From assembly GCA_008632985.1 (NCBI GenBank), contig QPGO01000042.1:1-64000 (forward strand): DNA of 64,000 bases, given 5' to 3'. Of the stretch, positions 1-24,834 are shown piece after piece. The stretch is from Psammoneis japonica (taxonomy: Eukaryota). The notes beneath the pieces were generated by a model. That model saw nothing but the letters and a program-made list of their open reading frames with translations. It had not been told where the DNA came from and searched no databases. The translations under genes were made by a program, and so were the position numbers. Numbering within the stretch: position 1 is the stretch's first letter; each line of letters opens with the position of its first letter.

Positions 1-2945
1 TTCTCGCAGACAGGCAGCGTCAAGAACTTGTGGTCATGCATCACCTGAAGCGCCTCAAGAGCTGTAGCCTCTGGTAGCACTGATTCTGGGTGGGGCGTCA
101 TAACTTCCGATACCATCGTTTGCTCAAGCGGCAACCCTTTAGCAACTGCACGAGTCATCATGTCTTTGAAACCGAAGAGTCCGACCAACTGCCCGTCTTC
201 CACAACTAGTGCTGCCTTGCGGCGCTCCGCCATCAGTTCTCCGGTTTCCCTGAGGTCTGTTTCAGGGCTCACGACAGTCGCTGGTTTGTTGGCAAGCAAC
301 GTGCGAAGCGTGGGTGAAGCTTGGCCACCGATAGCCTGTGACAACAAAGGTCCCAACAATGCCTGAAGGGCTGCAGCCTGTGCACCACCTGCACCTTGTA
401 GGCTTGCCATTTGTGCGACGGCATCCTCCGCCACACTGCCTTGTTTCTCACGGGCGCGCTCGAGTCTTGAAATTGCGTCGTTCAAACATTTAGCAATGTC
501 AAGCAGACCTACGATAGCTCCGTTGTCATCTACAACGGGCAAGTGGCGGAAGTGGTTCTCTACCATTGTTGTCATTGCATCCATAGCAGGATCGGTCATG
601 GAGACGCACATCGGATTGGGAGTCATCGCAGCCGATATTAACGTCGACGTCGGATCTAAGTCCTTCGCAACAACACGACGAGTTACGTCTGTGTCGGTAA
701 TGATCCCGGCTAGCCCACCATCAACCCCTACTACCAACGAGGCGTCACCCCGCTTGTTCGCAAGCATTTGCGACACTGATAGGATGCTGTCTCCCGATTT
801 CGAAAGCAATGGCTTCTTCGGTCGGAGCTTCGACACAGGACGTTCGCTAGTGCCCGCGGCGCCAGTAGATTGCGGTTTAGCCCGCGACGAGCGGAAGGAC
901 CCTATGCCGGTGAGAGCACTATGTACGGATCTTGTCTCAGTACCGTCGTCAGCCTCCATGGCACAGCTGAAGACCGATTTCCACCCCTCAGCACCGCCAC
1001 AGCCCAATATTACATCCATGACATCAACCAGTCCGACAACTGAACCGTCTTTCTCGCAGACAGGCAGCGTCAAGAACTTGTGGTCATGCATCACCTGAAG
1101 CGCCTCAAGAGCTGTCGCCTCTGGTAGCACTGATTCTGGGTGGGGCGTCATAACTTCCGATACCATCGTTTGCTCAAGCGGCAACCCTTTAGCAACTGCA
1201 CGAGTCATCATGTCTTTGAAACCGAAGAGTCCGACCAACTGCCCGTCTTCCACAACTAGTGCTGCCTTGCGGCGCTCCGCCATCAGTTCTCCGGTTTCCC
1301 TGAGGTCTGTTTCAGGGCTCACGACAGTCGCTGGTTTGTTGGCAAGCAACGTGCGAAGCGTGGGTGAAGCTTGACCACCAATAGCCTGTGACAACAAAGG
1401 TCCCAACAACGCCTGAAGGGCTGCAGCCTGTGCACCACCTGCACCTTGCAGGCTTGCCATCTGTGCGACGGCATCCTCCGCCACACTGCCTTGTTTCTCA
1501 TGGGCGCGCTCGAGTCTTGAAATTGCGTCGTTCAAACATTTAGCAATGTCAAGCAGACCTACGATGGCTCCGTTGTCATCTACAACGGGCAAGTGGCGGA
1601 AGTGGTTCTCTACCATAGTTGTCATTGCATCCATAGCAGGATCGGTCATGGAGACGCACATCGGATTGGGAGTCATCGCAGCCGATATTAACGTCGACGT
1701 CGGATCTAAGTCCTTCGCAACAACACGACGAGTTACGTCTGTATCGGTAATGATCCCGGCTAGCCCACCATCAACTCCTACTACCAACGAGGCGTCACCC
1801 CGCTTGTTCGCAAGCATTTGCGACACAGATAAGATGCTGTCTTCCGATTTTGAAAGCAATGGCTTCTTCGGTCGGAGCTTCGACACAGGCCGCTCACTAA
1901 TGCCCGCGACGCCAGAAGCTTTCGGTTCAGTCCGCGACGAGCGCAAGGACCCTGTGCCGCTGAGAGCGCTATGTACGGATCTGGTCTCTGTACCGTCGTC
2001 AGCCTCCATGGCGCTATTGAAGACCGATTTCCACCCCTCAGCACCGCCACAGCCCAATATTACGTCCATGACATCAACCAGTCCGACAACTGAACCGTTT
2101 TTCTCGCAAACGGGAAGGGTCAAGAACTTGTGGTCATGCATCGCCTGAAGCGCCTCAAGAGCTGTAGCTTCAGGCAGCACTGATTCTGGGTGGCGCGTCA
2201 TCACATCCGACACCATCGTTTGCTCAAGCGGTAACCCTTTAGCAACGGCACGAGTCATCATGTCTTTGAAACCGAAGAGTCCGACCAACTGCCCGTCTTC
2301 CACAACTAATGCTGCCTTGCGGCGCTCCGCCATCAGTTCTCCGGTTTCCCTGAGGTCTGTTTCGGGGCTCACGACAGTCACCGGTTTGTTGGCAAGCAAC
2401 GTGCGAAGCGTGGGTGAAGCTTGGCCACCGATAGCCTGTGACAGCAAAGGTCCCAACAACGCCTGAAGGGCTGCAGCCTGTGCACCACCTGCGCCTTGTA
2501 CGCTTGCCATTTGTGCGACGGCATCCTCCGCCACACTGCCTTGTTTCTCACGGGCGCGCTCGAGTCTTGAAATTGCATCGTTCAAACATTTAGCAATGTC
2601 AAGCAGACCTACGATAGCTCCGTTGTCATCTACAACGGGCAAGTGGCGGAAGTGGTTCTCTACCATTGTTGTCATTGCATCCATAGCAGGATCGGTCATG
2701 GAGACGCACATCGGATTGGGAGTCATCGCAGCCGATATTAACGTCGACGTCGGATCTAAGTTCTTCGCAACAACGCGACGAGTCACGTCTGTGTCTGTAA
2801 TGATGCCGGCTAGCCCACCATCAACTCCTACTACCAACGAGGCGTCACCCCGCTTGTTCGCAAGCATTTGCGACACGGATAAGATACTATCTCCCGGTTT
2901 TGAAAGTAATGGCTTCTTCGGTCGGAGCTCTGAAACTGGGCGTGA
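1..2945. repeat. 1050-bp coding tandem repeat (~2.8 copies visible), each unit 350 aa with four CBS domains
   Basis: The sequence at 1, 1051 and 2101 is nearly identical and stays in exact register with no indels seen. Confidence 0.97.
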
Positions 2946-5900
2946 GTCAGTATCTTGATGAAGTGTCCTAGATATCTTTCCTTGCTTTTCCGCACCTTCT
3001 TTCGTTGATTTGGCCTCTGTTACAGAGCCCAGCATGGTGGAGTCGTTCCTTCTTCCGTTCTTGGGGGGAGCAAGGCCTTCTGCTGCCAGGATGCTTTGTC
3101 GGATTTTACGAGTCTTTTTTGACGATTTTTGAGCGTTTGCGCCACGTAGGTTCGAAGTGGAGACTCCTTCGTTATGCTCTTGTCTTGGAACGTTTTCTTT
3201 CTCGCGAACGGGTTTCGGTGCCTTGCTTCGTTCGTTTTCAAGCTTGATCTGCAGCTCCGATATCTTTCCGTCGATTGCTTCTGCTTCGCCGAATTTTTTC
3301 GCCGCAAGAGCCTTCTTCATCTCAATTTGTTTTTCTTTCAGTTGAGCCCTTAGCTCTGGAACGGTTGGCAAGGATGGCCGAAGGCTTTCCATGTCATCGA
3401 CAGCACCTTGGAGAGACTCAGCGAGTTTGAAATCCTTCGAGTTTACAGCTTTTGTCACGAGCGCTTTCATTGCATTGATCTCTTGTTCAAGTTCGATGCG
3501 CGACTCGAAACGTTTAACAGTACCATCTTGAAATTTTACAACCGGCGGTTCAGCAATAACAGGAGACATACTAGTCCTATCAAAAGCTTCCTCTTCCTTG
3601 GCTAGCTTGTTCTCGATGACTTTGATTTCGTCACTCAACTTGCCAGCCTTCTCGAAGTCCTTTGTAGCAATGGCGCTTTCTAGAATTGTATTCTTTTCGG
3701 TAAGCAGACCTTGAAGTTCCTGCGCTGTGGGAAACAAACCTCGAAGAGATTCTTTCTCTTCCAAATGCTGCTGCAGCGATTTCGCGGTGTCAAAATCCTT
3801 GGAATCTACCGCGTCCTGCAGTTTCTTCTTGAGAGTTGCGATATCGTTTTCCAGGTCAGAACGAGTCGCGTATGAAACGCCGACATCAGCTGACGATTCA
3901 TCGATTTTCCCTTCACTGTTGCATCCTTCTGCATCCATTGCTACTCTGAGTCTTTCTTTTGCGATGTCGATGCGCTCTTGTCCAGCAGCTGCAGACGCAA
4001 AATCTCGCTTGCTAGCGGCTAGAGCGACAGATTCTTCAGCCTCGCACAATTCAGCCTTTAGTTCCTCAATAGTAGGTAGATCAGATCTCTTCTTCTTCAA
4101 ATCTTCAAGCTTATCTTGAAGTGGACCACAATCCTTGTAAGCTTTGAGAGCCAAAGCGTCGTTGAGTTCTTTTTCAACAGCCTTAATTCTGGTTTCAAGT
4201 ACTGCTCGAGTCAGTGGCCTTTTCAATTCAATAGCGTCTCTCAGAGAAGCCCTGATCAAGGATTCAAAAGTTTACAACAAGGTTAGAACAGAGATAGCAG
4301 AAATGTTGCTACACCATAAGGTCATGATCAAAACTTACAGTCGAAGCTCAATTTCAGATGCAACCTTAAAGTCGTTTCGTTCAACGCATTTCTCTAGCTG
4401 GAACTCCTCCGCAACGAGCAATTTCTGCAATTCGTTGAAACTCATGTCTTCGTATGGGTCCTTTAGCTTCTTTGTAAGGGCAGCTGCAAGTTTTCTCCGT
4501 TGGAAAGACTGCAACTTTAGAACCAACCACTGCGCTAAAGCATACTGCCTTAGCTGTAGGCGCTTTCTGTAGCTGGCCGCGATCACCGTGGCGGCGTTGT
4601 CCAATCGATTCTTTTTGATCATGTGAAGCCTGAAACGAATCCAGCATATGACTAGAGCATTGGCCCGTCGCTCCGCAACGAAGCGTCCAAATCTTCCTAA
4701 TCTTCGCGCGGCGACGTGTACCTTCAGCCGAGCTAGCCTTTCCAGCTTGTCCGCAAGCTCACGCCTTAGAAATATCTTTGAGTGTCCAATTTGCCAGTCA
4801 TGGTCGGTGACTGTTAGGCGCTTGGAGAGCACCTTCACGAGCTGTGAAATTCCCGCACCCTCGCCGAAGTCTTCCGGGTTTAGCAGCATGCTGAATCGAC
4901 TGTAGAAGCTCTTGTGCTCCTCTCTCAATGCGTAGCCCTCGCGGCGGATGCGAATAGTTTCCATCATACCTGCATACCTCAATTGCCTGAGAACCTCCCC
5001 AGAATCGAAAAAGTTTGCTTCCTTATTGAGATTTGGCTTGATACACCTGATGTAGTGAGGCTGAGTACGCTCTAGATCGGCAATGAGTCTCTGCAGGGAA
5101 TATCGGAATTGAGAACCGACACTCACGCCGCGGATTGCGGAACGTCGCCCGCCTTCGGGATAAGAAGAATTTTCTTCACACGAAGTTGATTTGAAAATAC
5201 CCTTTGTCAGTGGATTTGAAGATTGGACTCCCAGATCCTTTAACTCGTTGCTCAACGTTTCCATATTTTTCTCGACGAACCCGTCGGCTGTATACTTCAC
5301 CTATGAACAGCGAATCAAGAAAGAGCAATAAGAAGAAGACTGTGATACAGTATCTGCTACATTGCAAGTTGAAACTTACTTCTCCAGCATAATGGATTAC
5401 AACAAACTGTCGATCTGAGCCGAATTTCGGCATCACGAAATTCTGGTGCCTACCACTGTTTAGATCCACCGCTTTCTTGGCCTTAACCGTACTGTTAGGT
5501 ACTCCGCCGAATAGACTGTGCAAATGGCTTACAAAATTCACATCTTTCTCTGATGCTGAGCCCATGCCACCCCATGCGTCGTCAAGGGTGTTCAGGATAC
5601 CAATGGTTCCTCCACCTCCTTCAATGAGCTCGAGACATGGGCGATTATCATTAAATGTGATGTATGTCCAATCCACACCTTCTGATGTGTATAGGTCCTG
5701 CTCTACCTCAAACAGATGTCGGTTAAAATGCCGCTGCAGTTTCTCATTGCAGTAGTTGATTAGAAAAGTCTCATATGTATTGACTTCGAAACACTCAAAA
5801 CCGTAGATATCAAGAACTCCGATGAAACCATCACTATCGCCGTCGCTCTTTGATTTCTTGATTTCATATGGGCTCGCATCAGAGCCGACCGAATTCGAAT

Positions 5901-7742
5901 CGTCATCCAAGCCATGCGATGAGGATGAAATGGTTTTGTTCACGCGATGCACAAGCCACACAAACAAGCTCGAGTACGCAAGCTTGGCAAGCGCGTCTCT
6001 TTTATCCGATGCCTGCGCAACACTTTGCGGCTTGTGAATCGTCTTCCCTCCGATAAAAAGTAGCTTGGTAAGAATAGCCTCTGACACAGCATCCTGAGAG
6101 ATTCCTAGTAGTTCACAGGCCTTGGCAAGACTGGGAAGGCTCTCCTCGCATATGCGCGCAGAACTTTCGTCGTGTTCGTGACCAGGATCATCTTCAGCTG
6201 AATTCTCACCTTTCTCTTCAAATTCGACATTCCCTAGATGCAATACTGCTGCTAAAACTCGAAAAATGGTTGACTGCTCTTTGAGGGTGAGCCCAATTCC
6301 ATTTAGGCACTCTTTGGTCTCGGCGAAGCCGGTGATATCTCTGCGACTCTTTTGTGCGTCACGGTTTCCCAGATACTTAAACTGCGACACCCCCCCTTCC
6401 AATCCTAGTTCCTCCAGCATTTCTTGACCAGCGCCTGAAAGGAGCTGGTAAAAGATGTGATAGTTCCTTTCACCTTCCACCTGGGTCGTGATCCTCGTTT
6501 TTTCCAACAAGTAGTTTGATATCGTAGCACCGGAAATATGGCCAGTGTCAGTGCTGAACGAGATTCGAATGAATTTGCCGAAACGAGAAGAGTTATCGTT
6601 TCGTAAAGTACGGGCATTTCCAAAGCTCTCTAAAAGTGGATTCGAGGAAAGAACTCGATCTTCGAGGGCAGCCATTAACTTTCCGTCGGGACTCTTGATG
6701 GGGCTCAAAACCTTGCTCTTTTTCGTAATTCGTGAGAGATACTGCATGATGATCTTGGTCGCCTCGGTTTTTCCAGCTCCACTTTCTCCACTGATAATGA
6801 TGCTCTGGCTGCGCACCTGACCCTTTCGTGCGGTGTTCTCCATAGTGAGAAGAGCATCTTCTTCTTCCATGTGAATCATATCTGGAACGGCAGATTCAAT
6901 TAATGCAGAATACGCGCGATCAGCAACTTCAAAGAGATGCGGCGGAGGCGCATCATAATCTCTCTCTGTTCCTGAACCCTTCCCTAGCTCTCTGCTGCGA
7001 TAGAGAGCCATCTTCTTGTCTGAATAGATTGATTCTCCTTTGCCGCATGAAATTTGTTTGTAAGGATTAATACTCATAAGGATGGGACCGGCGCTTGTGT
7101 AAATATCATCTCGCTTGTATCGAATACGAAGGGTATGAAGCAAGCTTGCCTCAGTGACGTGGGCAAGATGAAGGACGTCGTCCATCCCGATGTAGTCGTC
7201 GGGAGCAGTGAGGGGGATTAGCTTCGAGCTGTCAACGATCTTGTGTAAAGTTCCGTCCGAAGTCTTAACCAACGTCGGTGCTGCGGAAGGAATTCCACTT
7301 TCACCGTCAGCTTGAGTCCCGTCCAAAGTCTTGATTATGCTACAGGGCATGAATAGATGTTTCGATGAGTACAACAAAGGGTCGGCCATAGCTTCAGCTG
7401 TCATGGCGAACGCAAGGTCCTTCCTTATCGGAGTTGCAGAAGCATCTCGCCATGGTTTGAAAGGCGTGTCCGCAGAAGTCTCCTGCAGAACAAGCGACGG
7501 ATCAAAGAAGTATTCCACCTTCGCTTTGCCTGTCACCTGAACGAAACAACGCCAAATGCGAAAAAATACCGTTTCAGTGAGCGATGGCAACGCCAGGTAC
7601 ACGAACGCGTAGACTTCTACAGAATTTTTTAAAAAAAGGAACGTACCAAGTCGACAGCTTTGGCTTTTCCTCCCGTCATCGCATTCCGAGATACTTTCTC
7701 TTTGCCATTGGCCCTCGCTGGAGTCTTGTAAGGTGTCTCCAT
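1..7742 (-). CDS. Class-29-like myosin: motor domain, IQ/neck, UVR-like helical repeats, tandem CBS cassettes. 3' end runs off the window.
   Basis: Motor motifs are GESGAGKTE (P-loop), NDNSSRFGKF, DIYGFE and PHYIRCIKPN. ATG at 7742; GT-AG introns at 7537-7646, 5301-5379 and 4252-4338 join the frames. The last exon reads from 4251 towards 1 and encodes CBS pairs (GIITDTDVTRRVVA, HFRHLPVVD, HKFLTLPVCE). Confidence 0.92.
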
Positions 7743-8151: not shown

Positions 8152-9016
8152 ATGGGAAACAAGAATAGCTCCGTCGAACCTGGCAGTGTTACGCCTTCTG
8201 CTGCATTCGGGCGTTTACGAATCGATTCGCCTCACCGGTCCCCTGGGCATGGACGGCAACATCGGCAACATCGTGAGGCCCAAAATGATGCAGGGCGATT
8301 CACACGGAGGATGAGATCGGGAAGCTTGTCTGATTTAAGAGTCGGAGAAAGAAAGCCTTTACTTGCTCAACAGACGCCTATCACTGCCGGAGGTGCAATC
8401 CAAATTGAACAGCGGCAGTTGTCTGCGCTTCCATCTGGAGAGTCGATGGCCTCCATAGTAGCTCCTCCTTTGATAGTTTGGATAGGTCCAGCACTTCTCT
8501 GCGCACTTGCTTATGCGCTTTACAATATCTTCATCAAGAAGGGGTCTGCCTCAATTCATCCGATTCTAGGTATGATTCCGCCGAATTTGAGGAGTCACCC
8601 CGCCCATTCAGTTTCTCGAATTCTAACCCGTGCGTAATTTGTGTGCAGGAGGCGTAATTTTACAGTTTGTGGCTGCTATTCTTGGGTCAGTTTTGCTAAT
8701 CTTTATCATTGTTGATCAACACACGAACCAGAAGGACGACGATAACCTGTACTATGATAGTGATGGGATCAAGTGGGCGATCTGCGCCGGTGTAAGCGTT
8801 GGTGCCGCAGAAATCATGAGCTTCTTTGTGAGTTCTCTCGGCGTACAAGCAATGCAAAGTATTCCAGTTATCATTGGAGGCAGTGTCATGTTTGGAACGG
8901 TGCTTGGCTTTATTATCTTGAAAGAAACCTTGTCTCTCAGTGGTTGGCTCGGCGTCTTGATGATATCGGTTGGGATTAGTCTCGTTGGTCTCGATCCTGC
9001 GGCAACAGAGGGCTAG
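8152..9016 (+). CDS. DMT/EamA-superfamily membrane transporter
   Basis: ATG at 8152, intron 8570-8648. A hydrophilic N-terminus precedes about five TM helices ending in the DMT-type signature LGFIILKETLSLSGWLGVLMISVGISLV. Confidence 0.75.
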
Positions 9017-9941
9017 TTGCTGCGAGTACTGTAAGTTTACTCGTCTCTCTCCACATATCACAAACCAGCTAGAGTTGCTACTCAGGCACGCAATCATAAA
9101 CCCCTGGCGCATTCAATTCATATCCAAATGGGCTCGGTTTTTGTATACTTTACGTGTAGAACTAATCTAGAGTATCCATGAGAGTTAGACACAATTTGAA
9201 TTTGAAAATTCCGTAGAATCAGTGAAGTCAGAGGCTAGGACTATGGTACTCTTTCTACCCTCAGACTAAAAGAGCCTTTAAATCGCTTGCGAATCCTTGT
9301 TCAAACTGGTATGAAGAAACAGAACGCACCCTTCAAATTGAATGAGCGAGTATGGTACACGGTATGGCAGGTACCTGAATGAACTGCTAGAGTTTTGTTT
9401 TCCATGTGTTGGGGAGTGACGAAAGGTAAGAAGATTAGTAACTTGAAACTTGAAACCATCCACCACGCACTCCATCCAGCTCTAGAGTGGAGTAGGTGTC
9501 TGTCTGTTACCATACCGGTAGCCTACCACCCACATACAGCATCGGAGGTCTGTCGGTTGCCAGTTGCCAGTGAAACGACTTCCCTGTCGTGCGTTGCATT
9601 TTCAATTTTCGATATGTTTCTTCCCTCTTTTGATGACACCTTGGTATCATCACGATTAATGTTATTACAGCATTGAAGACTTGTCCAATTTATGGTTCTT
9701 TCTTCAATTTTGATATTGGCTAATCAGTATCGTCACAACTTATTCAAGTTCCGCATGCGTTCAAGGAACTTTGAGGTGATCTATTGCCTCAAATGATTTC
9801 GAAATTCGTGAGAAGGGAAATCGCAAATCCATCACAAAAATCTCTGACGCGAGTTGAGACAACATCGAGGTCATACAGTATTTGTGTTCTTGTTGAAGCG
9901 ATTGTATCAGAACTCGTTTTCATCATTGATTCGTAAGCACG

Positions 9942-12480
9942 ATGTCTCGCTCGGGCGGACTTTTCTGTGCTACTGTTGCCATGGTGGCGACTCTTGCTGC
10001 AGCTGATTGCCTTGCGAACTCTACCATGAACAAGTTTTTCGAGGATGCGAATGGTGGGGTGTCGATCCCACAGGAGGACTCTTGTTGCATGCAGGATGTA
10101 TGTAATCTCCCGTGTCCTGAAGTGGTGGGTGACCCTGGAGTTGGATACGCAATATCTGTTGGTCTGTGCATTGCAGTTTCTTTTCTCGTTGGAATTGCCA
10201 CGTATTTCGTCGTCAATGGCGAGGCTGAGAACTATTTCGTCGCTGGCCACTCTCTCCCGCTTTGGATTGTTGCCATGACGTTGGGTGCTCAGTCGGTTGA
10301 CTCGAATGCCCTTCTCGGGAATGTCGATCTGTCATACAAGTTTCACTTCTACGACGGTGCTGTCATCCCCATCGGCCTAGCGTTATCGTTGTTCCTCAAC
10401 GCAGCGTTCCTTGCAAGGTACATCAACAAGGAGACCGCTCTTACTCTTCCTGATGTGCTAGCACGTCGCTATGGAAAGGTTGTCGAGGTCCTCATTTCCA
10501 TCACTACGATTACTTCGTTTCTAATGTTGCTTGCAGGCAATTTGGTCGGTATGGGTGTCATCACTTCCTACGTGTGGGGCATAGAGGAAACTGCTGCTGT
10601 GTGGACCGCAGCTGCCATTGTCTGGGCCTACACTGTCAGTGGTGGACTTTTCTCCGTGGCGTATACGGACGTTCTTCAAGGGTTTATAGGATGGACGGGT
10701 TGCATCGTCTGCGCCTACTGGTTCATTGCAAATGCCGAGGAACCGGCGCCGCCGCCTTCCGTCGGCTTTCCTGATTACATCTATCCTGATGAGGAAATTT
10801 GCAGTCTCTACGATGGTGACGATTGTACCTATAAATCAGAAGAGTGCTGCTTCAACGTGTCAAAGTGGTGCTTCAACGACGACCCTGATAATTGTACCAA
10901 CACAGATGTGAGTGCAGCTCCTGTCCTTATCTGTTGCTTTGTATCTTCATTTCGCTTGGATGGATCCTCACACGAGTCTCCTTCTCTATTAACACCACAA
11001 AGAATGGAGCATATCCTATCGGCGACCAGCGCGTCTTCAGCGATCAAATGGGGAACCCCACCTCGTTGACTCCTTTCCCTAACGCCATTTTCTGGAACTG
11101 GTGCACCATCTTTATCTTGGGTTTTGGGAACCGTGAGTGCACATTGTTAATGTACCTTCTTTCGATCCCTGTTTTTCAAGGCAAGGATACGCACTTACCG
11201 TATTTCTTTCATTTTTCATAATTCTTGTCATTTCAGTTGGAGCTCTTGACTTCCAGGTCAGATGCATGGCAGCCAAGACTCCCTCCACAGCAACAATTGG
11301 ATGCGTCATGGCTGGCTGTTTCACTTTGTTTATCGGTATCCCGTTCTCCTATCTAGGGGCTATTACACGGTGAGTTGTGCTACGCAGACGAGAGAAACAT
11401 TGTTTTTGCAACAATAACGCAGTTTGCGTCTATTTGAGGCTGACACATATTCTGATCGTGGTTTCGTCCTATCACAGATACTATTATGGGCCCGACTCTG
11501 TCCGGGCTTTCTTTGAAACGGACACGTGCTCGGAGATCTTGGGCCTCCCAACTTGTGCCAAGTGGGTGCCCGACGAGAATGCCTTTGTCAAGCTCTTGAC
11601 GAACGAGGCTCCTGCTGTAATTGGAGCCTGGTGCTTGATCGGTATTGTTGCAGCCTCGCTGTCGACGGCGGACGGAGCTATTCTTGCCATGGGAACTGTG
11701 TTCTCTCACAACCTCATGAGACAGTTTGACGTCAAGTGGCCTGACCTCATCACGCCGGACAATCTGCTCTTGATGGCTCGTCTCTCCACGATCCCATTCA
11801 CGTTTGCTTCGACCATGATTGCTGCCTACTACAGGGATTCTGATTCTGCCGCTGGTGCGACAGGATATCTTCTCATTGTCGCATTCGACATTGTCCTTGC
11901 AACCGTTGTTGCGCCCCTGTTTGGGTGCTTCTATGCGAAGAATCCGAGTCCACGAGCGGCGTTGTGTTCCGTGCTTGTAGGTGCGATCACCCGCCTTGTT
12001 ATGGAATTCGCTCTGCCCAAGGACGGGCAGCTTTTGCTCCCTTTCAACGAACCCGAGTTTTATGATTACGGCCCAGCTGCCAGCGTGAACCTCCCTACCT
12101 TCGTCGATGGCGAGAATGGCACCGTTTGGAATCCGGATGAAGAGCCTTGCGACCAGAAACAGTTTGAGGATTACACGGGCGCCGATTCTCTTGCTGCCTT
12201 TGTTGGCTCGGTTCTCACGTTCGTCCTCATTCAAACGTGGGAGAACTGTCATGGAGGAAATGCCTTGTTCACTCTCCCCGGAATGGTGCCGTATGAGAAG
12301 GATGTTGGACAAGAAGATTTCCCTAAAGAGGAGGAGTCGGACGAAGTCACGAAAGAGAAGATGGTGGAAGGTGTCGAAGTTGAAGAGGAGCGTGACTCTA
12401 CTAGCGACGATCCACACGAACAGAGTCCAGATGAAGAGGGCTCTGGCGGAGCAGAACCGGTGAAAGAGGATGACGCCTAA
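9942..12480 (+). CDS. Sodium:solute symporter (SSS/SLC5 family, choline-transporter-like); substrate unknown
   Basis: SSS motifs are NYFVAGHSLPLW, YTVSGGLFSVAYTDVLQ and IVAASLSTADGAILA. Introns 10908-11002, 11133-11236 and 11370-11477 restore the frame. The start codon is uncertain. Confidence 0.88.
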
Positions 12481-12856
12481 GTTTGTATTTATTGTGCAAG
12501 AAGGATAGCTGAGGCAGAACGTTTGTAAGGTACATGTATTCATGTGTTGGGCGAAGAATGTTTAAGGGCCCACCATGTGATAGTTGTTGTTAAATTGTTA
12601 CGTAGCTTGTGTTCTAGTTGTGCTAAGTCCTTATTTTTACATGATCGTTGCGATCTGTTCAACTATTCTGCATTCACTTCACGAGGGCTCGCTTGGTTTT
12701 GGAAGAGCCTGAGCAGACAGACTCATTATGATGTCGAAATATGTACAATGCTACCAATAAACCGAGCCCCACACTCATTTGCTGAAATATCATAAGCCTA
12801 TCCACGACCTTAAGTCGTAGCGCCTACAGCCAAACAGCTTGACTCACTCGAAGAGA

Positions 12857-13540
12857 TCATCGTTGAGAAAGTCGCTTCGATGTGTGAATCGTTCGAGATA
12901 GAGAAGACATTGGAGATTTCCGACCAAAGAGCTGTTGGGCAACAACTTGAGCTGGTCCAGAGTAGGGCTTAGCGCCCGCCTTGACGGTCAAGTCTCGAAT
13001 CACACTAACCGCCGCAGGAGGAGCAAGGACAGAAGCAAAGAGACCTGTTCCTAGAAGGACTCCGATCGCAATGGAATGGCTCAGAACTCCCGATCTTGTA
13101 GCGTGCCCGGGATCGGTCGCGTTCACCGCCTCTGGTGAGGTCGATTCATGTCGCTCCTCTGCATTCAGCTGAACCGTCGTAGTACTGGTATGAAGCTTCT
13201 CGTACACCACGTCCCAGCCCAGCCATGTCCCTCGCCACACGAGAACACAGGAGAAAGCAATCGAATACAGAGCACCAAAGCGGAGCAATGATATAGGCAC
13301 CGCCCGTGGATGCCGCGCTACTTGTTTGCCGAAAGATTCAATGCGGGCTACGAGTCCCTGAGACGCAGCCATGCCAAAAGTACCGAGTCCGAGCGAAGCT
13401 AGTGCGGACTGCGCCGGAGATTCAGGAAACAGGTGATCGTCCAAGACATACCATGCACCTCGCCAAAAACTGGCTGCGCCCATGCCAACTGCGACATGAG
13501 TCAACACAGTCTTTAGTGCCTGAGGACGAAAGGGAGCCAT
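12857..13540 (-). CDS. Small membrane protein with two WRGxW motifs (Fuseless-like)
   Basis: The ORF has hydrophobic segments and repeated SFWRGAWYVLD / LVWRGTWLGWD motifs. It is divergent from the ureohydrolase gene. The start is inferred at MAPFRPQ. Confidence 0.6.
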   Translation of the reverse strand: MAPFRPQALKTVLTHVAVGMGAASFWRGAWYVLDDHLFPESPAQSALASLGLGTFGMAASQGLVARIESFGKQVARHPRAVPISLLRFGALYSIAFSCVLVWRGTWLGWDVVYEKLHTSTTTVQLNAEERHESTSPEAVNATDPGHATRSGVLSHSIAIGVLLGTGLFASVLAPPAAVSVIRDLTVKAGAKPYSGPAQVVAQQLFGRKSPMSSLSRTIHTSKRLSQR

Positions 13541-14080
13541 GATGACCCGGTATTTGCGTTGCAATGAGAATCGGAATGCAAACGAACCACCCATCGGAAC
13601 ACGCTTCTTCTTCTCAAAGATCGGAAGTTTGTGAGGAAAAAAACGAACAGAATTCTTTAGAGTGACTTCTCTCGGCGGGCACTTCTTTTATAAAAAATTA
13701 TACAAAAAACCGTGAAATCTCCGAATCAGGAGGGACACTATAATAAGATGACGTGTCCTTATTCATAAGTACCACGTCTCATGTACACGTCACTTCAACA
13801 TTCATACTCCGAGTCTCCGAAATTCAGATATTCGAGTTCGTAGATAAAACATAATTATATACATACATCATCTTCGGCATTGAATATATTTGAATCTGGA
13901 AGTACGAAGTACGTACGTACTGTACGTCGCGAGAATTTGCGCGTAAGTCCACGCGCAGACAACGGGCGCACCCCATCAATCAAGCATCACGAGGCTGTCG
14001 TCAGCTGTCAAAAGCGGATCAATCAAACATCAATGACACAAGTGACACCAGCGATCTTGGTCCATTCGTCAGCAATCACC

Positions 14081-15473
14081 ATGTCGTCTCTCGTTACTCG
14101 ACGCCTCCTCTCCAAGAAGCTTTTGTTGCGTCAAGCGACAGCACTACAGCAGACACGTAGCCATCACCCTGATCCTTTCAATCCAAAGGTGACGAAAGGA
14201 TGGAAGGCTGCTCTCAAGGTATGTGCTCGCACTCAATCTTCGACATCATCTGTCGTTTGTTTCTCACATTATCATTGTTACTCACCAACGTGAATTTTTA
14301 CAGGAAGCGGATCTACCTCGCACCAAATTCGACCAGGAGATTGCCGAGGGACTCGAATTGGGTCTCCCCGGCGCTTCTTCGATCGACGACAAGACCATCC
14401 CAACATTTTCGAGGGGCGAACTACCACACTTTGCTGGAATCAACACGTTCCTCAAGGCTCCGTACGTGGAAGATGCCAAACTGGTTGGAGAGTATGATGC
14501 GGCTGTAGTGGGCGTTCCGTTTGACGGGGGTTGCACCTATCGTGCGGGAACGCGCTTTGGACCTCAGGGGATCCGCCGCATCTCGGCCTTGTACACTCCC
14601 TACAACTACGAAAAGGGTATTGACCTTCGAGAACAAATGACTCTCTGCGACATTGGAGATGTCTTTACTATTCCTGCAAACCTAGAAAAGAGGTAAGTAA
14701 GCCTTGCTCCTTGTTGCTTTGTTTTGGATTCGAAACGTTGTGCCAGCTAACTTGCCGTTTCCCTACGTCGTTGTAGCTTTGATCAAATCTCGAATGCAGT
14801 TGCTCACATTGCATCCACAGGAACAATGCCGATCATCTTAGGTGGTGATCATTCAATTGGATTTCCCACGGTTCGTGGGCTGGCGTCGGTGACCAGCAAG
14901 AACATTGGCATCATTCATGTTGATCGCCATGCTGATATCCAAGAGAAGGATCTCGACGAACGCATGCACACCACTCCATACTTTCATGCCACAAACCTAC
15001 CCAACGTTCGCCCTCAGAATCTGGTCCAAATCGGAATCGGGGGCTGGCAGGTTCCTCGCCCCGCTGTTCCCAACATGATTGAACGGGAGACGAACATCTT
15101 TACCATGGATGACATTGAACACTACGGCATTGACAAGATTGCAGAAATGGCTCTAGAGCGAGCTTGGGATGGCTGCGATGCTGTCTACATGAGTTATGAC
15201 ATCGACTCCATTGAAGCCGCTTTTGTGCCTGGTACTGGATGGCCTGAGCCAGGTGGTCTGTTGCCTCGAGAGGCACTCAAGTTGGTAGGACTTGTCGCTA
15301 AAGAAGGTCTTTGCGGCATGGAGGTTGTAGAAGTGAGTCCGCCGTACGATCATGCTGACATCACATCCTTGATGGCTCTTCGCATTGTAGTTGATGCCTT
15401 GGGTGCCATGGTTAGTCATGGAACGCTTGGAAAACACAAGGACATTATTGACAAAGAATTTGTGCCGTTTTAG
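14081..15473 (+). CDS. gdmH: Ureohydrolase of the Ni-dependent guanidine hydrolase (GdmH/Sll1077) type, with a mitochondrial-type presequence
   Basis: Introns are 14219-14303 and 14693-14776. Arginase-fold ligands are GGDHS, DRHAD and DIDS. Long stretches match my recollection of Synechocystis GdmH: IPTFSRGELPHxAGINTF, GTRFGPQGIRRISALYTPYN, DLDERMHT and PGTGWPEPGGLLPREAL. Confidence 0.8.
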
Positions 15474-16317
15474 ATGAAGCTCAAAGTAGTGGCTTCGAAC
15501 CCTTTAGATACCTCCATGATGTGAATTCGACATTACTCGTAAATACACACACACTATCTCTCTCCTAAGCATTACTTGGTTTTGGTTCTTTTTTATCTGC
15601 GTGCAGCCAGCAGCTCTACTCTCTATTAGAGAGAGCTTGGCACTCCTGCACCTGTGTTCACAAGAATGTTGGCCCGCTTGGGCAAATTTGCTCATCGCTC
15701 AGCCCACACAACACACAAGTTCCACTTCGTCATCACATTGTTACCTCTCCATTGTGCCAAGTGGCATTCTTGTCCAAAAACGAAGGTGTGAGCAGCTGAT
15801 TTGCTCTCTTTGCCTTTGGCTTTCAATTGGGAGCAACAATGATGTCTCCGACGAGAAGTCAACTCGCTTGGTTGGCGGTCGTCTTCCTGTTGCTGTTCAC
15901 CTTTTTAACAATCACTCAGTCCATTGGCTCATTTATCACCTCACCCCAACATGCACCATCATCAAACAACATTTTGGAGGACAGGTGAGACTGTGGCAGG
16001 GGGGCTCCTGTGTTGGGTGGGCTGGTTCTGGCTGGCAAGTTTTCATGTTTGGTTTGATGCCTTTGGACATGCCTCATCGTAAATTCTCAAATTTGGCATG
16101 CTGGTTCTCCCTGCAGCTCAGGAGAGTGGTTTGGCACCCAGCATGGTGCTGGCTTTGGGTCATCTTGAGCTCTTCTTGACATGAAGGCCAGGAACAAAGA
16201 GATGGAAAAGCTTGGAATCACAAAGGAAATGTTGGAGATCATGGTGGGAAAGTGCGTGTGGCTGCCTTGCTGGTGGCATTGATGGACTGAAAGTTGCACA
16301 AAGGAGAGCCTGGAAAC

Positions 16318-18946
16318 TCAGCAGAGATTTGTTTGCAAGTTAGACAATGCCGCTGAGCAATCATGCGAGAAAGCACAAACAGCCATCGTGTCATCTGTGT
16401 GTGGCCCCAAAAAGGTCTGGCGAGTTGCGCACATGTTGCCCACCATCAGCAAGCCACCATTTGACCCACCTTGTGCAGCAAGCTTTGAGGGCTTGCATGG
16501 CTTCTGTGATGCAAGGTGCTCAGCAATGGCAACAAATCTTTGCAGCTTTTGTTTCTGCTTTCTTTTGGTGCGGCACAAAACCTCAAGCAAGACAAGCACA
16601 TGTGAGAACACTGCTGGGGCAGACCAAATGTGCAGGGAAGTGGGGTTGCCTGGCAAACACACAGGATTTGCCTCATGCTCCTGGGGACTGAACTTTCCAC
16701 CACCTCTGACATTTGCCTCTGCACATGCACCACCACACTCAAGCTGTGCAATTCCAAATGAACAAAGTGGGAGACACAGTCACAGGTGAGACTCTTCCAA
16801 AGAAGGCTGCACAGAAACAAATCTTGCGGGATGACAAACAGCAATCACTCACCGGCAGCAATGTGGTGCAAACAGAGAGCAATTTCAAAGCCACTGCAGC
16901 AGCTGTGAAGCAATGCACAGGTGTGCTGCCATCCACCACAACTCCTTTCTTCTTTGCTGAGAAGCAAGGTGCTTTTGTCCCATCCTTGCCAGTCGCTGTT
17001 TCCTGAGCAACTTCCAGATCAGAAAAACCATGTTGCGATGACAGGGCTTTTTTCTCCTGCATGTGTGGTTCAAGACAGTCTTTTTCTGGCTGTCCACCTT
17101 GAGATCCAACATTGCTGCAATTTGCCAAGCAGAGCTCACTTCACTGTGTGTGTCAACTTCCAGGGAGCCAGCAGAACTCACCACTTTTTTCCATGTGCAT
17201 TGACTGGAACAGGAATGCCAGATTGAGTTGATGCTGCCAAGTCACCCCCTGCCTTGCACGGAGCAGATCAACTCTCTTGGATCTTGTGGAACTCAAGCTT
17301 CAACTCTTGACATTGTCCAACAAAGACAGGACAAAACAGTTCTTTGTCACAATGCAGTTCTCAATGGCAGCTCTGTTGCCAGGCTTGAAGACAACATTGC
17401 AGGCACAGGCCTCCTTTCTGTTTGAGAGCAAATCCTTTGCACACACTGACACAAAGCACTGAGCCCTGCTTGCAATCCTCCTTTCTCAGAACAGGCTCCT
17501 GGTCAGATTGTAGATGGATGATCAACACATTGCCAACAAATGTTGCACTTGCATCATCTTGAACACATCAAGCTCCACAAAGTCTTGTCCTCTGCATTCC
17601 TCTGGCTGTGTTTTTCATGTCATCTGGAGCCAACAAATGTTCAAACTGAACTGTCTGAACCCATTTTTCTTGTCAGTGCAGAAAGTTGGTGCATGAGGGT
17701 GCACTTCATAAATTGGCCCTCCACAATGCCGCTGGTCATGCGCACGCACACTGACAGAGACATCATTTTGCTCACCCTCAACCACAACAAGGGCATCCTC
17801 CAGGTTCATGCCATGGACCTGCTTTCTCACTGCACGAGGGCATCCAGCCAGAATCTGTCAAGCTTTCTTCTCCAAAGTCTGTCCTGCTGACAAGAACAAT
17901 GTTTCTGCTCTTGCAGCTTGTTCTGGTCTCAGCGTTGCTGACAATGGAGGGATCTTGTTGTTCTGCAATTGGGAAATCACCTTCAAGAGGATCAAACTCC
18001 TCAACATGCACAGCTTTGGATCCACCTTGAGAGAGTCTCAGAAGTGACCAAGTCACCCGTTGGCCGTTGTTTGAAAACCAGTGGTGTGCTCCAGCCAGTG
18101 GTGGGTGGCACTGACCCCCTCCAAACCAACAACATGTCATCCTTTTCAGCGACAGTTCATCAACATCTGCAACAGTGCTCCACTTGTGGTTTGCAGAGTG
18201 GCAGGTTTGCATCATCATCTTTTGCCAAATTCCTTTGGGGTTCTGCAATTTGCACCGGGTTTTCAGAAAAGTTCAGAGCTGGAAATCATTTGATGCATGT
18301 CAGTGAGGAGTGCACAGTTGACGCTGCATTGCCCTCAAGTCCTTCCTGAAGTTCAGCAAGGAAAAGGGGCTCCCCCACTTCTGCATGGCCACATTGCCCA
18401 CAATGAGAGATGTGTTCTTCACTCTCAAGAGCTGCCAAAACATGGTCATGCTTGCCCACGCAGTCAGATTTGTTGAGATTGCCCAGAGCTTTTGGGCACT
18501 TTTCATCAGCTGTGTCTGCAACATGTTTCCATGCTGAACCAGAGTGATGCTTGTCAATCATTGAAATTTCCATGTCTGCTCAATGTTTCTGCCAATCTTC
18601 ATTGTGCATGGATGTTGACTCTGTTTCTTGACAGTTGTCAAGTCACAAACAACCAATTTTTTTGCTTGTTTCAAGTCACCAGTGTTGCTTCTTGTGACTG
18701 CATTTCTAAACATAAGTTTGCGTGCATTTTTTGAGTGCATGGTTGACGCTGCATTGCCCTCAAGTCCTTCCAGAAGTTCAGCAAGGAAAAGGGGCTCCCC
18801 CACTTCTGCATGGCCACATTGCCCACAATGAGGGATGTGTTCTTCACTCTCAAGAGCCACCAAAACATGGTCATGCTTGCCCATGCAGTCAGATTTGTTG
18901 AGATTGCTCAGAGCTTTTGGGCACTTTTTATCAGCTGTGTCTGCAA
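16318..18946 (-). pseudogene. Prolyl oligopeptidase (S9A) pseudogene, main body
   Basis: Degenerate motifs are GGSNGGLLM (catalytic Ser), KDGTKAPCF, LSQGGSKAVHVEEFD, TDFGEESLTDSG and VLAALESEEHI. There are many frameshifts and stops. Confidence 0.85.
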
Positions 18947-19157
18947 TGTGTTTCCATGCTGAACCAGAGTGACACTTGTCAATCATTGAAATTTCCATGT
19001 CTGCTCAATGTTTCTGCCGATTTTCATTGTGCATGGATGTTGACTCTGTTTCTTGACAGTTGTCAAGTCACAAACAATTAATTTTTTTCTTGTTTCAAGT
19101 CACCAGTGTTGCTTGTTGTGACTGCATTTCTAAACTTGTTAAGTTTGTGTGCATTTT
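18308..19157. repeat. 425-bp tandem duplication spanning the pseudogene/transposon junction
   Basis: gttgacgctgcattgccctcaagtcc occurs at 18317 and 18742. Confidence 0.92.
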
Positions 19158-19399
19158 CCCTTCTCCTTCCATTTGCAAGCTGTTTCCCTTCTGTTTTGCT
19201 CTGTTTCTGCCAAATCTGTCCTTTTTTCCCCACTGCACACACCACAAGCTGTCCCCTGACCTAAAATCTGCCAACACGGCAATGGCACACCCCTGTTGCA
19301 ATCCACTTTGTCCTGGTTAGATGTCTGACAACAACAAAAATGACCAGTGTGCTCTCTGCTGACATTTCCAAAGGTGTCTCCAGTGTTCTTCTTTCTTCC

Positions 19400-21560
19400 A
19401 GCATTTGGGCCTTGACAATGCATCCTCCTCTCCCAACCACTCCCTGAGTGACAATGGTGCCTCCAGCTCTTTTGATGCATCAGAGCCTCTCAACATTCCC
19501 TCAATTCAAGCACTGGGATTCATGTCCCTGTCTCTTCATGATGGTGATCCATTGTGCCTTTGCCTGGATGCCAGTGATCAAGAGTTTCAACCATCCACCC
19601 ACAATGATCTTTCCTCCGATGAATTGCCAGGGGGGGGGGGGGGTTCTTTAACAACAAAGGGGTCAATTCTCATCATGCACCACAGTGCAGAAGAACTTGG
19701 TGTTGGCTCTCTTGTTGCTCAAGACCCATCCAATGATGACATCTGCTGCAACAATGTCCTTTTCCCAGAGGAGGAGTTCAATGTTCTCTCAGCACAATGT
19801 TCTCTGTGTCATCCTCTTCTCTCCCCAACAAGGACAAAGACAATGATGGTTTGCACTGCAGATGGAAGAAGCTCAGCTGTTGCAACTCCATGCATTTGTG
19901 AAGCCAATGCTGCCAAGAAGCTTTGCCATGTGGAGGAAGAGTTGGCTGTGACAATGAAGAAGCAACATCTCTCCCATGGTTTGCACAAGGCTTTTTTTCT
20001 TGGGCTGGACATGCCTGTGGACTGTGAGTGCAAGTCTCCCTCCTGCTCTGCCACCTTGTGATGTGTGAAAGCCAAGCATGCCAATTGTGTGGGCCCAGAG
20101 CCCATTTGCTCCACAGTGCATGTGGGACCCAAGTTCCCCCCAATGCGTGTGCACCATTTTTCCTTTCTGCATCATGTGAGAAGGGTGCTCCGTGATCCCC
20201 AGGTTGTCCAGTCAGTGGTTGCACCATGAGAAGCACTGGCCCAAAACAAACAAGCACATTTGTGGCTCTCTCAACACTGGAGACTGGTGGAAGCAAGCAG
20301 AGCATGATCTCAAATGTTCCCTTGATGAACTGGGCAATGGCTGCCCCTCTGGGTCACACTTTGTTTGCCCAGTTGTGCTGTTTGACAATTCCACCTTTTG
20401 TGTCAACACAGGTCATGTGCAAGCAAACCAGTTCTTGCAACATTCAGAGAGCGCTTTTCTTGGTCTGGACTTTCTTGTGCACATCCAAGCTCCACAGCTT
20501 TCTTCACTTCCTTTTTTACATTCATCATTGCGGCAATGCCAACATTTTTAGGGTGGATTTTGTGAAGCTCTTCTCAAGATGCTTTTGAAACAAACTGCTA
20601 AAAACGCTGGTCATCAGCAAGATGTGCCACACCTTGATGTGTTGAATCACCACTGCAAGGACCTCATGGCAAGGGAATCAGAGAAGCACTTGCTGGAGGC
20701 AGGTTGGCTGCATGCACAAGAGGATGAGGCTCCTGCACCTCAATCATCAAATTGTGGATGCACAGACCCTGCCGTCGCTGGATTCAAACTGTGTGAATCT
20801 GCAATGATGGCTGCTCAGGCTGCAAACGTGGATGACAGCAACACCACATTGCCTGTAAAATGCAGAGACAAGCAGCTGCAGACACTGTCACATCCATTTG
20901 CTCCAGGCCATCATGGCAATGAGTGGTTTGCATCCTTGCTGGATCATGCAGAACATTGCAAAGCCTTTCCATTGATGTTGTGAACTTTCGCTTTGGATGT
21001 GATGCTCCAGGCCAAGCCAATGATGAACATGACATTCTAAGATGCCACCCAAACTTTCACCCCCATCCTTGGGAACAAAGGAGTTGGCATGACTGGGCAA
21101 TGGTGAACTGGGATGAGAACAAAACAAGCCATTTGGTCAACATGACATTCTAAGATGCCACCCAAACTTTCACTCCCCTGTCCTTGGGAACAAAGGAGCA
21201 GGCATGACTGGGCAATGGTGAACTGGGATGAGAACAAAACAAGCCATTTGGTCACAGCTCATGTGTTGTTGCAGGCAACCTTGAAAAATCAAACGATGCA
21301 ACACAAATCCACAGTTTGTGCAATCCAGTCACTTCAGAGCTTTGCACCAACCAAAGATTCACTTCTGACCTTTTTCTTCTGTGATGAAACAGAGTTGGGA
21401 ATCAGAGTTGTTGATGCTTCTGAGATTGTGTTGTCTGCCACCTTTGTTCTTCCATCAATGAGGTTGCCACAAGACCCCAGTCCAGTGCCCAGCAAGAAAT
21501 GTCCCAAAAGTTTGTCAACCAAACACAACAGACTTGTTCATCTGAGCAGCCAATGATGTC
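19400..21560 (+). pseudogene. Plavaka-like transposase remnant
   Basis: Motifs LNTGDWWKQAE, FVCPVVLFDNSTFC and CHPNF...WHDWAMVNWD resemble Plavaka transposases. The sequence is fragmented and the boundaries are approximate. Confidence 0.6.
21026..21254. repeat. ~113-bp tandem duplication
   Basis: aacatgacattctaagatgccacccaaactttcac occurs at 21026 and 21139. Confidence 0.9.
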
Positions 21561-24500
21561 AAATGGAGTGGGATCCTGGAACAGCATGCTGCAGCAATGT
21601 GCGACTGTCTGTGGTTAACTCGTGTGAGTTCTTTGGCAAACATGTGCTGGCAGAGATTGCAGCCGGGGGCCAACTCACTGTGGATTCCATGGGCTCCATT
21701 GCTGGCAAATTCTCAACTGTTTTCATCCTGTTTTCTTCCTGAAGGAACTGCCAAGCCATTCAAAAGCAGCCAATCAACAAGCAATGAATGAGATGCTTGG
21801 TCTCTTGGGAAAGCCTCTGTAGATCAGTTCTTTTTGCTGGCAACTTTCTTTTGTGTTCCACCATCATGCATGACACTCACCCATTGAGGATGGTGAAGGG
21901 ACCACATTCTTGATGGTGCAACTCTCCATTCTTTTTTTTAACACAGCATCATTGCCATTGTGTGCAGTGCACCATCCTTTGGAATTTTTGAACAGCTGGG
22001 CATTGAAGCACCAAAAACATGTCATGACGGCACGGTGAGTGAGGAAATCACCCCACTCACCATGCCATTCCACAGCACAGCACTTGCATTGTTGAAAGTT
22101 CTGCACATGACAGTGGCAATTCATGCAGCTGCATTCATGTGGAACAAGGGTGTCAAGAATCCTTTCTTGCATCGTTCCAAAATGTGTGTGGTGGCAAATG
22201 ATGTTTTTTCAGACAGACCCATGCAGCACTGGTCCTCTGGCAGTTTCCTCCAAACATGCATCAGTTGTGCAAGAGTGCAGTCCTCTTCATTTGGATTTAG
22301 TTAGAAACCTTGTGCCACACCATCAACTTTCACATGTGTTGCAGACAATGCAGTGGCTTGTGACAACAACACACATGTTTGTGTCAATGAGTTCTCCTGT
22401 TTGCATCAACGAATGTTGCCATTGAGTGTGTCATTGTTTGTTGCAGAGGATTGACTGGCTGGAATAAAAACATCCAAAAATCTTTCTGCAAGGTTGCTGT
22501 GCTCTTGCTGGCATCTTGTTGAGATCAAATGAATGTGTGGAGCAGTTGCTGCATTGCTGCTGCTCTCTTGTCATTGTCTCGTTGAGAATGTGACAACAAA
22601 AGTTTCACTGTCCATTGAGAATGAATGATTGACAACAGAAAAACCAAATCCACAGCTCAAACAGCCAGCACACCACCTCAACCAATGCTCCAGAGTCAAG
22701 TCAGGCCAGTGCAGCAAGTGCTGCTGTTGCATCTTCACTCCTTCATCCACACAACAGCAGCAGAATGACCATGGATAAAACAAACTTGGACAAGTCTCCT
22801 GAGTTGGCTGTCTTTTTGGATGACAATCTTGACATGCTCAGCCTGGATGGTGCTGATTTGTCAAAGGATTCATTGATGCCGTCTCCATGCAAAAGAAATC
22901 ATGAGTGTTGGAGGACATTGTTTGCCTCACCAGGTGATGCTCATCTGTCAACAGATGCCATCCTGTCCCCCCCCCCCCAAGTGTTGGTCATCAAGCAAGG
23001 AACCTCCAGCAACCAAGTGGATGGCTGTGTCAAGCAGATCCCCTCCGAGGGGAAAACATCCACACAAGAGTGGCCGTTGCCCCTTTTCACCAATGCTGCT
23101 GCACTGTGCAATCATCCAAAAACAGTAGAGCACTGTGCCAAAACTCTGTTTTTGGAGGACAACTGCATGTTTTTCATTCAAAGCAACCACAAGCAGGAGC
23201 TGGACAACACAAAGTTGGACAAGACGTTTGAAGTGACACACCGTTGGTGTCATCTCCAGTGCTTCTGGTGCTGCCACAGTCTTTTTGCAATCATGATGAA
23301 ATCAGCTGTTTGGACTTGGATGACTCCTCCTTGCAGGATGCATTGGATGGGCTGTTTCAGCCAACCAAGAAAAGTGCAGCTGCAATGGATTGAAAGGAGC
23401 GGTCTGCAAAAAGGAGGAAGGCCACCAACCACCAAGGTGCAAAGGAAATGCCAAGTTCATTTTGGCAACCAGAACAATGCAAGGTTGAGTGGCCCCATTG
23501 TGCACACTCCCAGAAAAGCAGACATGGGTGGGCTTGGCTCTGTCAAGCTCATCCAAAAGCATTTGGAATGTGAGGAGGACAAGGAGATGGAAAAGAGCCT
23601 GCCAGGTGCATTGTTGAGAGCTCAGACAAGGCAGTGCCAAACACATTCTGGAAGGCTTGGTTTGTTCACAAAGAGTTGATGGAGTGGCACAAGAGGTGGT
23701 GGGCAACCACCAGCAGATGGCAAAAGAGCCACCCAATGGAGATGAAATGTCATGCTCCATTGAGGATGACAACCTGCACACCACTCTCCTCACCATTGGA
23801 AGTGGCTGTGGTGGTGGGGTTGCTGGCATTCACATTGACATGCAGGGTGCATCTGTGGGATGAAGGGGATTGCCAGACTTCCATTGCAACCTCACCGACA
23901 ATGCAAACATTGCCTTCCTTGCATGTGTTCCAGTCAGAAGAGGTGTGTTGCAACCCATCTTGGTTTTGCAATGGGCAAAAACCATGACCAATTTCTGTGC
24001 AGAATCATTTTGTCATGGAGCAGCTCATGTGGGGACTTGCCTCACTCATTGAACAACTTGTTTGTCCGTGCAAGTGAGTTGAACAAATTGCTCAGGCCCA
24101 AGCCAGAGTGGATTGGCAATTGCAGCAAGAATGGAAAATGTGTTTTCCTTGCTTGGCACACCAAGCAAAACTTGCCAATGGTGCATGCGATAGATGAGGT
24201 GCACCAAAAAAAAAAACATGGAGCCTCATGTCCACTCATGATGAAGATTGGCAACAGACTGAATCAAATTCAAAAGAACAGGAATGAATGGTGTGACACA
24301 AGCAGCATGAGCTCTGAGGAGGATTGGATCCATCTGTGTGAGAAGTTGGGCAGGATGGAACCAGCTCATGACTGTGGTGAGGAATCCAAAATTTGGCAAC
24401 TTCAGGAAAGGCAATCATTGCAATGACAGTGCATGTTGTGAAGTGCAGCTGCAGACAACAGACAAGGTCACTGCAGTTGGAACATTGCAAGTGGACATGG

Positions 24501-24834
24501 CCAAAATGCATCAAACTCCAGTGGATCCATGAGCCTCATTGAACATGTCATCGTTGTCTTCCACAGAATCCTCTGGCTCCTCTGGCTCCATTGCATCCAG
24601 TTGCAACTTGTTGTCCTGAACAGAGGGTGGGAAATCAACTTGATCAACCAGGGCCAGGTTGCTGTTGCCTGTTCCCTCATTGCATGACAAAAAATCAAGA
24701 GTTGGTGCAATCAGAGTGTCCATCGTCAGAGCAGCTGAACCTGCATTTGCGGCAACAGCTGGCTGACTCAGTTCCTCCACCTCCAAATTGTTGTTTGATG
24801 AAACAAAGGCAAGCCCATGCCCTGAGTTGGGGTT

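Follow-up and report, generated by a model that had tools for sequence, protein, structure and literature searches.

The region described here lies in a 64-kb window, the whole stretch of DNA that was analysed (positions 1-64000 of contig C40 in the 91-Mb, 597-contig assembly of Psammoneis japonica), where four adjacent genes at 8152-15473 include one for a GdmH-type guanidine hydrolase (guanidinase). An earlier sequence-only reading had taken the four for a module with which a diatom could use guanidine as a nitrogen source. When the exons were spliced by coordinates all four genes were intact, with GT-AG introns and no internal stops, and comparison of the products with Pfam gave EamA, SSF, Fuseless and Arginase, bearing out four consecutive genes of which three encode membrane or transport proteins:

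8152-9016, + strand: EamA-like DMT gene; exons 8152-8569 and 8649-9016; 261 aa, about five transmembrane (TM) helices
9942-12480, + strand: SSS (SLC5) Na+ symporter gene; exons 9942-10907, 11003-11132, 11237-11369 and 11478-12480; 743 aa
12857-13540, - strand: gene for a Fuseless-like (PF15993) membrane protein; single exon, 227 aa; head-to-head with GdmH
13541-14032, no strand: intergenic region separating the Fuseless-like gene from GdmH, which is divergently oriented; 492 bp
14033 (or 14081)-15473, + strand: GdmH-type ureohydrolase gene; exons 14033 (or 14081)-14218, 14304-14692 and 14777-15473; 423 or 407 aa

The intergenic region is possibly a shared promoter. For GdmH the ATG at 14081 may be the true start, the resulting 407 aa resembling the 408-aa protein of Fistulifera. 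One copy of GdmH and one SSS gene of the cluster type were found in the genome.

Identity of the hydrolase

When the hydrolase was compared with solved structures, the best matches of its catalytic exons were to 7ESR/7OI1 of Synechocystis and 9FEK of Nitrospira inopinata (E 9e-87 and 1e-86 for one exon, 1e-63 and 2e-60 for the other), while the next-best solved ureohydrolases reached only 1e-29 and 1.5e-16 for the two exons and E. coli-type agmatinases about 1e-20, against about 1e-86 for the guanidinases. The three structures are identified as guanidinases in an excerpt of PMC11410670; the titles of the Synechocystis and Nitrospira entries in the PDB read probable or putative "agmatinase 2". 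All ten key residues that the same excerpt names for the N. inopinata enzyme were found, and when the window protein was aligned with 253 homologs of 340-500 aa each of them was retained in 252-254 of the 254 rows. Four are specificity residues (T140, H256, W347 and E377, matching Thr105, His222, Trp313 and Glu344 of N. inopinata) and six are metal ligands (H217, D241, H243, D245, D333 and D335, matching H182, D207, H209, D211, D299 and D301). The N-terminal extension beyond the arginase domain is also present, as exon 2 aligns gap-free to residues 30-158 of 9FEK and 23-150 of 7ESR, and the Phaeodactylum ortholog scores 148 against the agmatinase family TIGR01230, under its cut-off of 174.3. 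The motifs on which the sequence-only reading had preferred GdmH to an agmatinase were located in the translation (ERMHT at 253, GTGWPEPGG at 344, and PTFSRGELPH), and that preference agrees with the structural matches, the ten residues and the TIGR01230 score. By family membership the window hydrolase is a GdmH-type guanidine hydrolase, with a predicted activity on guanidine and a probable dependence on nickel. Its nearest named homologs are from pennate diatoms, Fistulifera (88.7% identity) and Phaeodactylum (85.5%).

In their abstract Funck et al. 2022 (Nature) reportedly name heterokont algae among the probable GdmH carriers. Homologs were also noted in Ectocarpus, in a haptophyte, in Vitrella, which has two copies, and in a taxon labelled "Tetr" and read as Tetraselmis (P0092, P0107, P0261, P0040 and P0038), so that the enzyme ranges more widely than the heterokonts. 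In L104, a contig of 1,556 bp assigned to a Bacteroidota metagenome-assembled genome (MAG), a match of 231 residues extends over 822 bases, pointing to an intron; the contig is probably a eukaryotic contaminant. Elsewhere in the P. japonica genome, on contig C229, a 587-aa open frame (L003:1270-3033) contains an arginase-family domain fused to the beginning of an amidohydrolase domain, and resembles a HutG-HutI fusion of histidine-degradation enzymes.

Conservation of the gene neighbourhood

To follow the neighbours of GdmH a metagenome scan was performed with search patterns taken from P. japonica, and the best 80 of 434 confirmed loci were analysed. Grouping at 93% nucleotide identity reduces these to 26 groups, including one of 33 loci; many loci are short, and groups were taken as informative if their upstream flank measured at least 3.5 kb, which left 12. 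Among these 12, SSS was found near GdmH in all, the Fuseless-like gene in 10 and a mitochondrial carrier (PF00153, SLC25), the fourth conserved cluster member in relatives, in 9, while the DMT gene was found in none (31, 37, 39 and 0 of the 80 loci, respectively). As a control, the other 69 long frames of the window were compared with the 80 related loci and none matched any of them, so the linkage goes beyond chance. Gene order and orientation differ among loci and membership persists: SSS lies mostly upstream of GdmH on the opposite strand in relatives, while in P. japonica the divergent partner is the Fuseless-like gene. Five of the 12 groups are diatom-like, L007 (with Skeletonema), L013 (99.5% identical to Leptocylindrus), L016, L079 and L083; one is Bathycoccus, one matches Micromonas commoda by cluster membership and four more are Micromonas-like by GC content and, where included, tree position.

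Seven named assemblies in which both SSS and GdmH are listed were also compared (unlisted paralogs may exist), shared records being recognised from equal record lengths and locus tags. The two genes are linked in four of them:

Phaeodactylum: SSS B7GCN8 and GdmH B7GCN5 on one 441,226-bp record
Cyclotella cryptica, linked twice: HJC23_001250/001251 and 003881/003888
Bacillariaceae MAG: SGBAC_012080/012081
Bathycoccus prasinos: SSS and GdmH on one 976,262-bp record

In Phaeodactylum the carrier ortholog J23672 lies on chr_26, as does GdmH (J40880). The cluster is a real and conserved eukaryotic guanidinase cluster, of three genes in P. japonica and four in most relatives. The synteny of the four genes, proposed as a check in the sequence-only reading, holds for GdmH with SSS and the divergent membrane protein and fails for the DMT gene, which is absent from all 80 algal loci and from all 80 nearest bacterial loci. 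In that reading the bacterial guanidinium exporter Gdx had been cited as a member of the DMT superfamily. The SMR/Gdx guanidinium exporters carry a glutamate in TM1; the window protein matches EamA and not the SMR family and has no acidic residue in its first TM helix, none being present between positions 99 and 161. A Gdx-like exporter of the module was therefore rejected; the DMT gene is real, and probably a bystander.

The nearest bacterial GdmH relatives are 71-79% identical and come mostly from alphaproteobacteria, together with one SAR324 genome. A guanidine-I riboswitch lies upstream on the same strand in 9 of 11 bacterial loci scanned with Rfam, chosen from the 80 nearest, which supports the assignment of the enzyme as a guanidinase; no Rfam match at gathering scores was obtained in four algal loci or anywhere in the 64-kb window. 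None of the cluster partners stands beside GdmH at the 80 bacterial loci, and a bacterial origin of the cluster as a whole was rejected on this ground. In a GdmH tree of 53 rows (L084 dropped, L079 and L083 not included) the named eukaryotic proteins and the rows from metagenomes cluster with the SAR324 sequence and are separated from 15 proteobacterial rows (support 100/97); being midpoint-rooted and without a characterised GdmH or SpeB row, the tree gives no basis for naming a donor or the direction in which transfer took place.

Outside the cluster, a large myosin gene with motor-domain motifs occupies window positions 3-7400 on the minus strand, divergent from the DMT gene. Just past GdmH begins a stretch (16001-28000) with an observed/expected CpG ratio of 0.10-0.17 and ratios of about 1.8 for TpG and CpA, which probably represents decayed, once-methylated repeats.

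Transporters, compartment and nickel

The symporter scores 73.3 bits against PF00474 (cut-off 22.8) and its nearest solved relatives are SLC5A7/CHT1 and the bacterial sfCHT choline symporters (8J74, 9RWS; E 1e-21 to 3e-25). In CHT1 alanine substitution in the aromatic cage W62, Y91, W141, W254 and W406 abolishes choline uptake, according to an excerpt of PMC13220886. The corresponding positions in the window protein are S118, L146, L196, A368 and L542, although the block in which A368 and L542 align has a weak score. With all five choline-binding aromatics replaced a choline carrier, which the sequence-only reading had named as an outcome that would count against it, was rejected, as was a urea carrier, the match to DUR3 reaching only E 5e-6. 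Conservation across 90 rows is 95% or higher at D120, N122, D370 and D547, and acidic residues in the pocket would suit the guanidinium cation. The protein belongs to an algal SLC5 subfamily related to CHT1 but without the choline cage, and is a candidate guanidinium importer.

The Fuseless-like protein scores 43.2 bits against PF15993 (cut-off 25), which is also exceeded in the four loci tested, and the top clusters in the Atlas are Fuseless (0.89 and below), which serves only as a lead. It carries the motif WRGxWxxxD twice and a His154 that is near-invariant across the family, and is about half the length of the animal members. Its structural model is a helical bundle with a mean predicted local distance difference test score (pLDDT) of 76.5, for which Foldseek gave no match at E <= 0.001; the best hit (Z 8.5) covers a 68-residue hairpin, and all that the fold searches returned were helical hairpins of a generic kind. 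Animal Fuseless proteins have a synaptic role, and we know of no link between the family and nitrogen metabolism. The protein might be an accessory membrane component, perhaps most readily an additional route for a cation, either guanidinium or nickel.

The GdmH presequence before HHP holds six basic and no acidic residues, and most eukaryotic homologs are similar. The supplement of PMC6779911 lists J40880 as predicted mitochondrial by HECTAR, MitoFates, MitoProt and TargetP, and parts of the same paper localise the Phaeodactylum urease to mitochondria and place GSIII-GOGAT there too. GdmH is likely to be mitochondrial, judging from its presequence and these predictions, and a linked SLC25 carrier is consistent with such a location.

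The absence of HypA/HypB-like nickel chaperones from the window, stated in the sequence-only reading, agrees with the listed frames, among which no long frame for one is evident; a HypA/HypB family scan of the whole window was not made. A genome-wide search for HypA in P. japonica gave no match above cut-off. Elsewhere in the genome 14 CobW-type matches were found; 12 of the 14 were inspected and show no UreG motif, and the intact ones carry CxCC. In one of the 26 metagenome groups a CobW/COG0523-type GTPase (L058:557-1513) lies some 8 kb upstream of GdmH, probably by chance. In Bathycoccus-type loci, which account for 23 of the 80 loci and 2 of the 26 groups, a membrane protein with the motif HxxxGPDH and no Pfam match lies directly upstream of GdmH, and an unlinked homolog is present on contig C195 of P. 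japonica. We take this protein to resemble nickel transporters. It was located at:

L025:34-1566, - strand: HxxxGPDH membrane protein, Bathycoccus-type locus
L037:7725-8696, - strand: HxxxGPDH membrane protein, Bathycoccus-type locus
L184:1387-2343, - strand: HxxxGPDH membrane protein, Bathycoccus-type locus

Interpretation and known systems

Taken together, the results suggest that major marine algae are able to import guanidine and break it down in mitochondria. We give a probability of roughly two in three to a conserved algal guanidine module of Na+-coupled uptake, mitochondrial import and hydrolysis to urea and ammonium. The SSS protein would import guanidinium over the plasma membrane together with Na+, and an SLC25 carrier dedicated to this step, whose gene is part of the cluster in most relatives, would take it into the mitochondria. 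There a matrix-targeted, metal-dependent (probably nickel) GdmH would convert guanidine to urea and ammonium. Phaeodactylum and other algae whose mitochondria contain urease and GSIII-GOGAT could then assimilate the nitrogen in place; the Fuseless-like protein would be accessory, and the DMT protein would stand outside the module. A fuller version can be proposed only tentatively: a complete compartmented scavenging pathway, clustered in diatoms and Mamiellophyceae, with a Na+/guanidinium symporter of the SLC5 choline branch, a mitochondrial guanidinium carrier, a mitochondrial GdmH and a Fuseless-family protein whose Trp/Asp motifs would form a guanidinium or nickel conduit.

Several observations weigh against the module as described. 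The carrier ortholog of P. japonica (L099/L100, 52-61% identity, next paralogs about 30%) is unlinked, at C5:860430-861359, and in Phaeodactylum GdmH and the carrier fall into different co-expression modules in three datasets. Listed copies of SSS and GdmH lie on separate contigs in three of the seven named assemblies (Fistulifera, Mayamaea and Seminavis), and the 12 informative groups are not independent, five being Micromonas-like. An Arg-rich extension in which R stands two residues ahead of HHP is found in bacterial GdmH homologs as well, so the motif alone is no proof of mitochondrial targeting. The induction under nitrogen starvation proposed as a check proved to be only weak in Phaeodactylum: J40880 reads 175/175/115 without nitrogen versus 101/155/123 on ammonium and barely follows nitrogen status, compared with the urea transporter and with urease (101/109/124 versus 13/27/112). 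Family searches of the P. japonica assembly detected neither urease (alpha, beta and gamma domains, TIGR01792) nor UreD or UreG, and if the absence is real one ammonium would be gained per guanidine unless another urea route exists (urea carboxylase/amidolyase was not searched). The non-detection of urease is unexpected for a diatom and may reflect loss, assembly incompleteness, splitting by introns or a search miss.

The weak nitrogen response, together with strong expression of J40880 at night, would fit a true guanidinase whose module serves mainly to remove guanidine that the cell itself produces, protecting respiration, with nutrition secondary and the symporter salvaging a leaked or related guanidino compound. 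Guanidine-producing dioxygenases of plants and green algae, described in an excerpt of PMC11018352, might provide a source, and with no urease detected two thirds of the nitrogen could remain as urea. Such a role is nevertheless unlikely, as the tightest partner (12 of 12 groups) is a Na+ symporter from an importing family and J40880 shares its dark-up module with the urea transporter J20424. Somewhat less probable still is that the neighbours supply nickel, SSS, the carrier or the Fuseless-like protein bringing nickel or a nickel chelate to mitochondrial GdmH in place of GhaA/GhaB. The lack of a HypA match, the HxxxGPDH protein upstream of GdmH in Bathycoccus-type loci and the near-invariant His154 speak for it; but SSS, carrier and Fuseless-like genes are retained where this candidate nickel transporter is present, the TM1 pocket segment of the conserved SSS set contains no His or Met, and SSS and SLC25 proteins typically carry organic solutes.

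We would also give little credence to a purely historical linkage, in which the genes spread among algal lineages as a block that is now decaying apart and the substrate of SSS is unrelated to guanidine, for instance choline or a different amine. PhaeoNet flags both GdmH and the carrier as closest to green algae, the GdmH tree departs from a clean species-tree order, linkage has been lost in three named diatoms and the nearest characterised relatives of SSS are choline transporters; yet membership persists although order and orientation have been reshuffled between lineages, no other window gene co-occurs, and the choline cage is absent. That the enzyme is an agmatinase as annotated and the cluster serves polyamine metabolism is hardly credible. 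Diatom papers (including parts of PMC6779911) treat J40880 as an agmatinase, in line with the database names, and a diatom metabolic model assigns it the reaction AGMT_m, but the flux through AGMT_m in that model is zero, the specificity Thr and Trp are present, and both the structural matches and the TIGR01230 score point away from an agmatinase.

Guanidine catabolism has so far been characterised in bacteria, and no description of algal guanidine use or of this cluster was found in the literature, where the full text of Funck et al. 2022 may say more. If the guanidine module is real, abundant marine primary producers (diatoms, Bathycoccus and Micromonas) compete for a nitrogen pool that models ignore, and the diatom "agmatinase" is mis-assigned in urea-cycle schemes and genome-scale models. 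The cluster provides candidates that can be tested, one for guanidinium import into a eukaryotic cell and one for guanidinium transport into mitochondria, and opens a way into the Fuseless family, for which a conduit, if confirmed, would be the first molecular function. Orthologs of enzyme, symporter and carrier have been identified on a single chromosome of Phaeodactylum tricornutum, a species amenable to genetic work, in which the question can be put to a direct test.

Among known systems gdmH-ghaA-ghaB of Synechocystis sp. PCC 6803, with the ABC importer sll1080-82, resembles the algal cluster in enzyme clade, specificity Thr/Trp, metal ligands, N-terminal extension and the clustering of enzyme and importer. 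The diatom cluster differs in being eukaryotic, intron-bearing and probably mitochondrial, in having SSS instead of an ABC importer and, among algae, in adding the SLC25 carrier and the Fuseless-like protein, while HypA/HypB-type genes and a riboswitch were not found. The guanidinase operon of N. inopinata, as outlined in part of PMC11410670, likewise combines a guanidinase with a single secondary transporter and has no known nickel chaperones; its permease is of the APC and not the SSS type, and the algal system would have an extra organellar transport step and, as far as was found, no riboswitch. The symporter itself shares with CHT1 and sfCHT a conserved Arg that aligns (R260/R374), and differs, beyond the missing cage, in conserved Asp/Asn of TM1 and conserved loop cysteines. 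Nitrate and urea assimilation clusters of Mamiellales, described in an excerpt of PMC2944026, are another case of physically clustered algal genes for nitrogen transport and assimilation; the substrate is different, and the guanidine cluster is common to green algae and diatoms.

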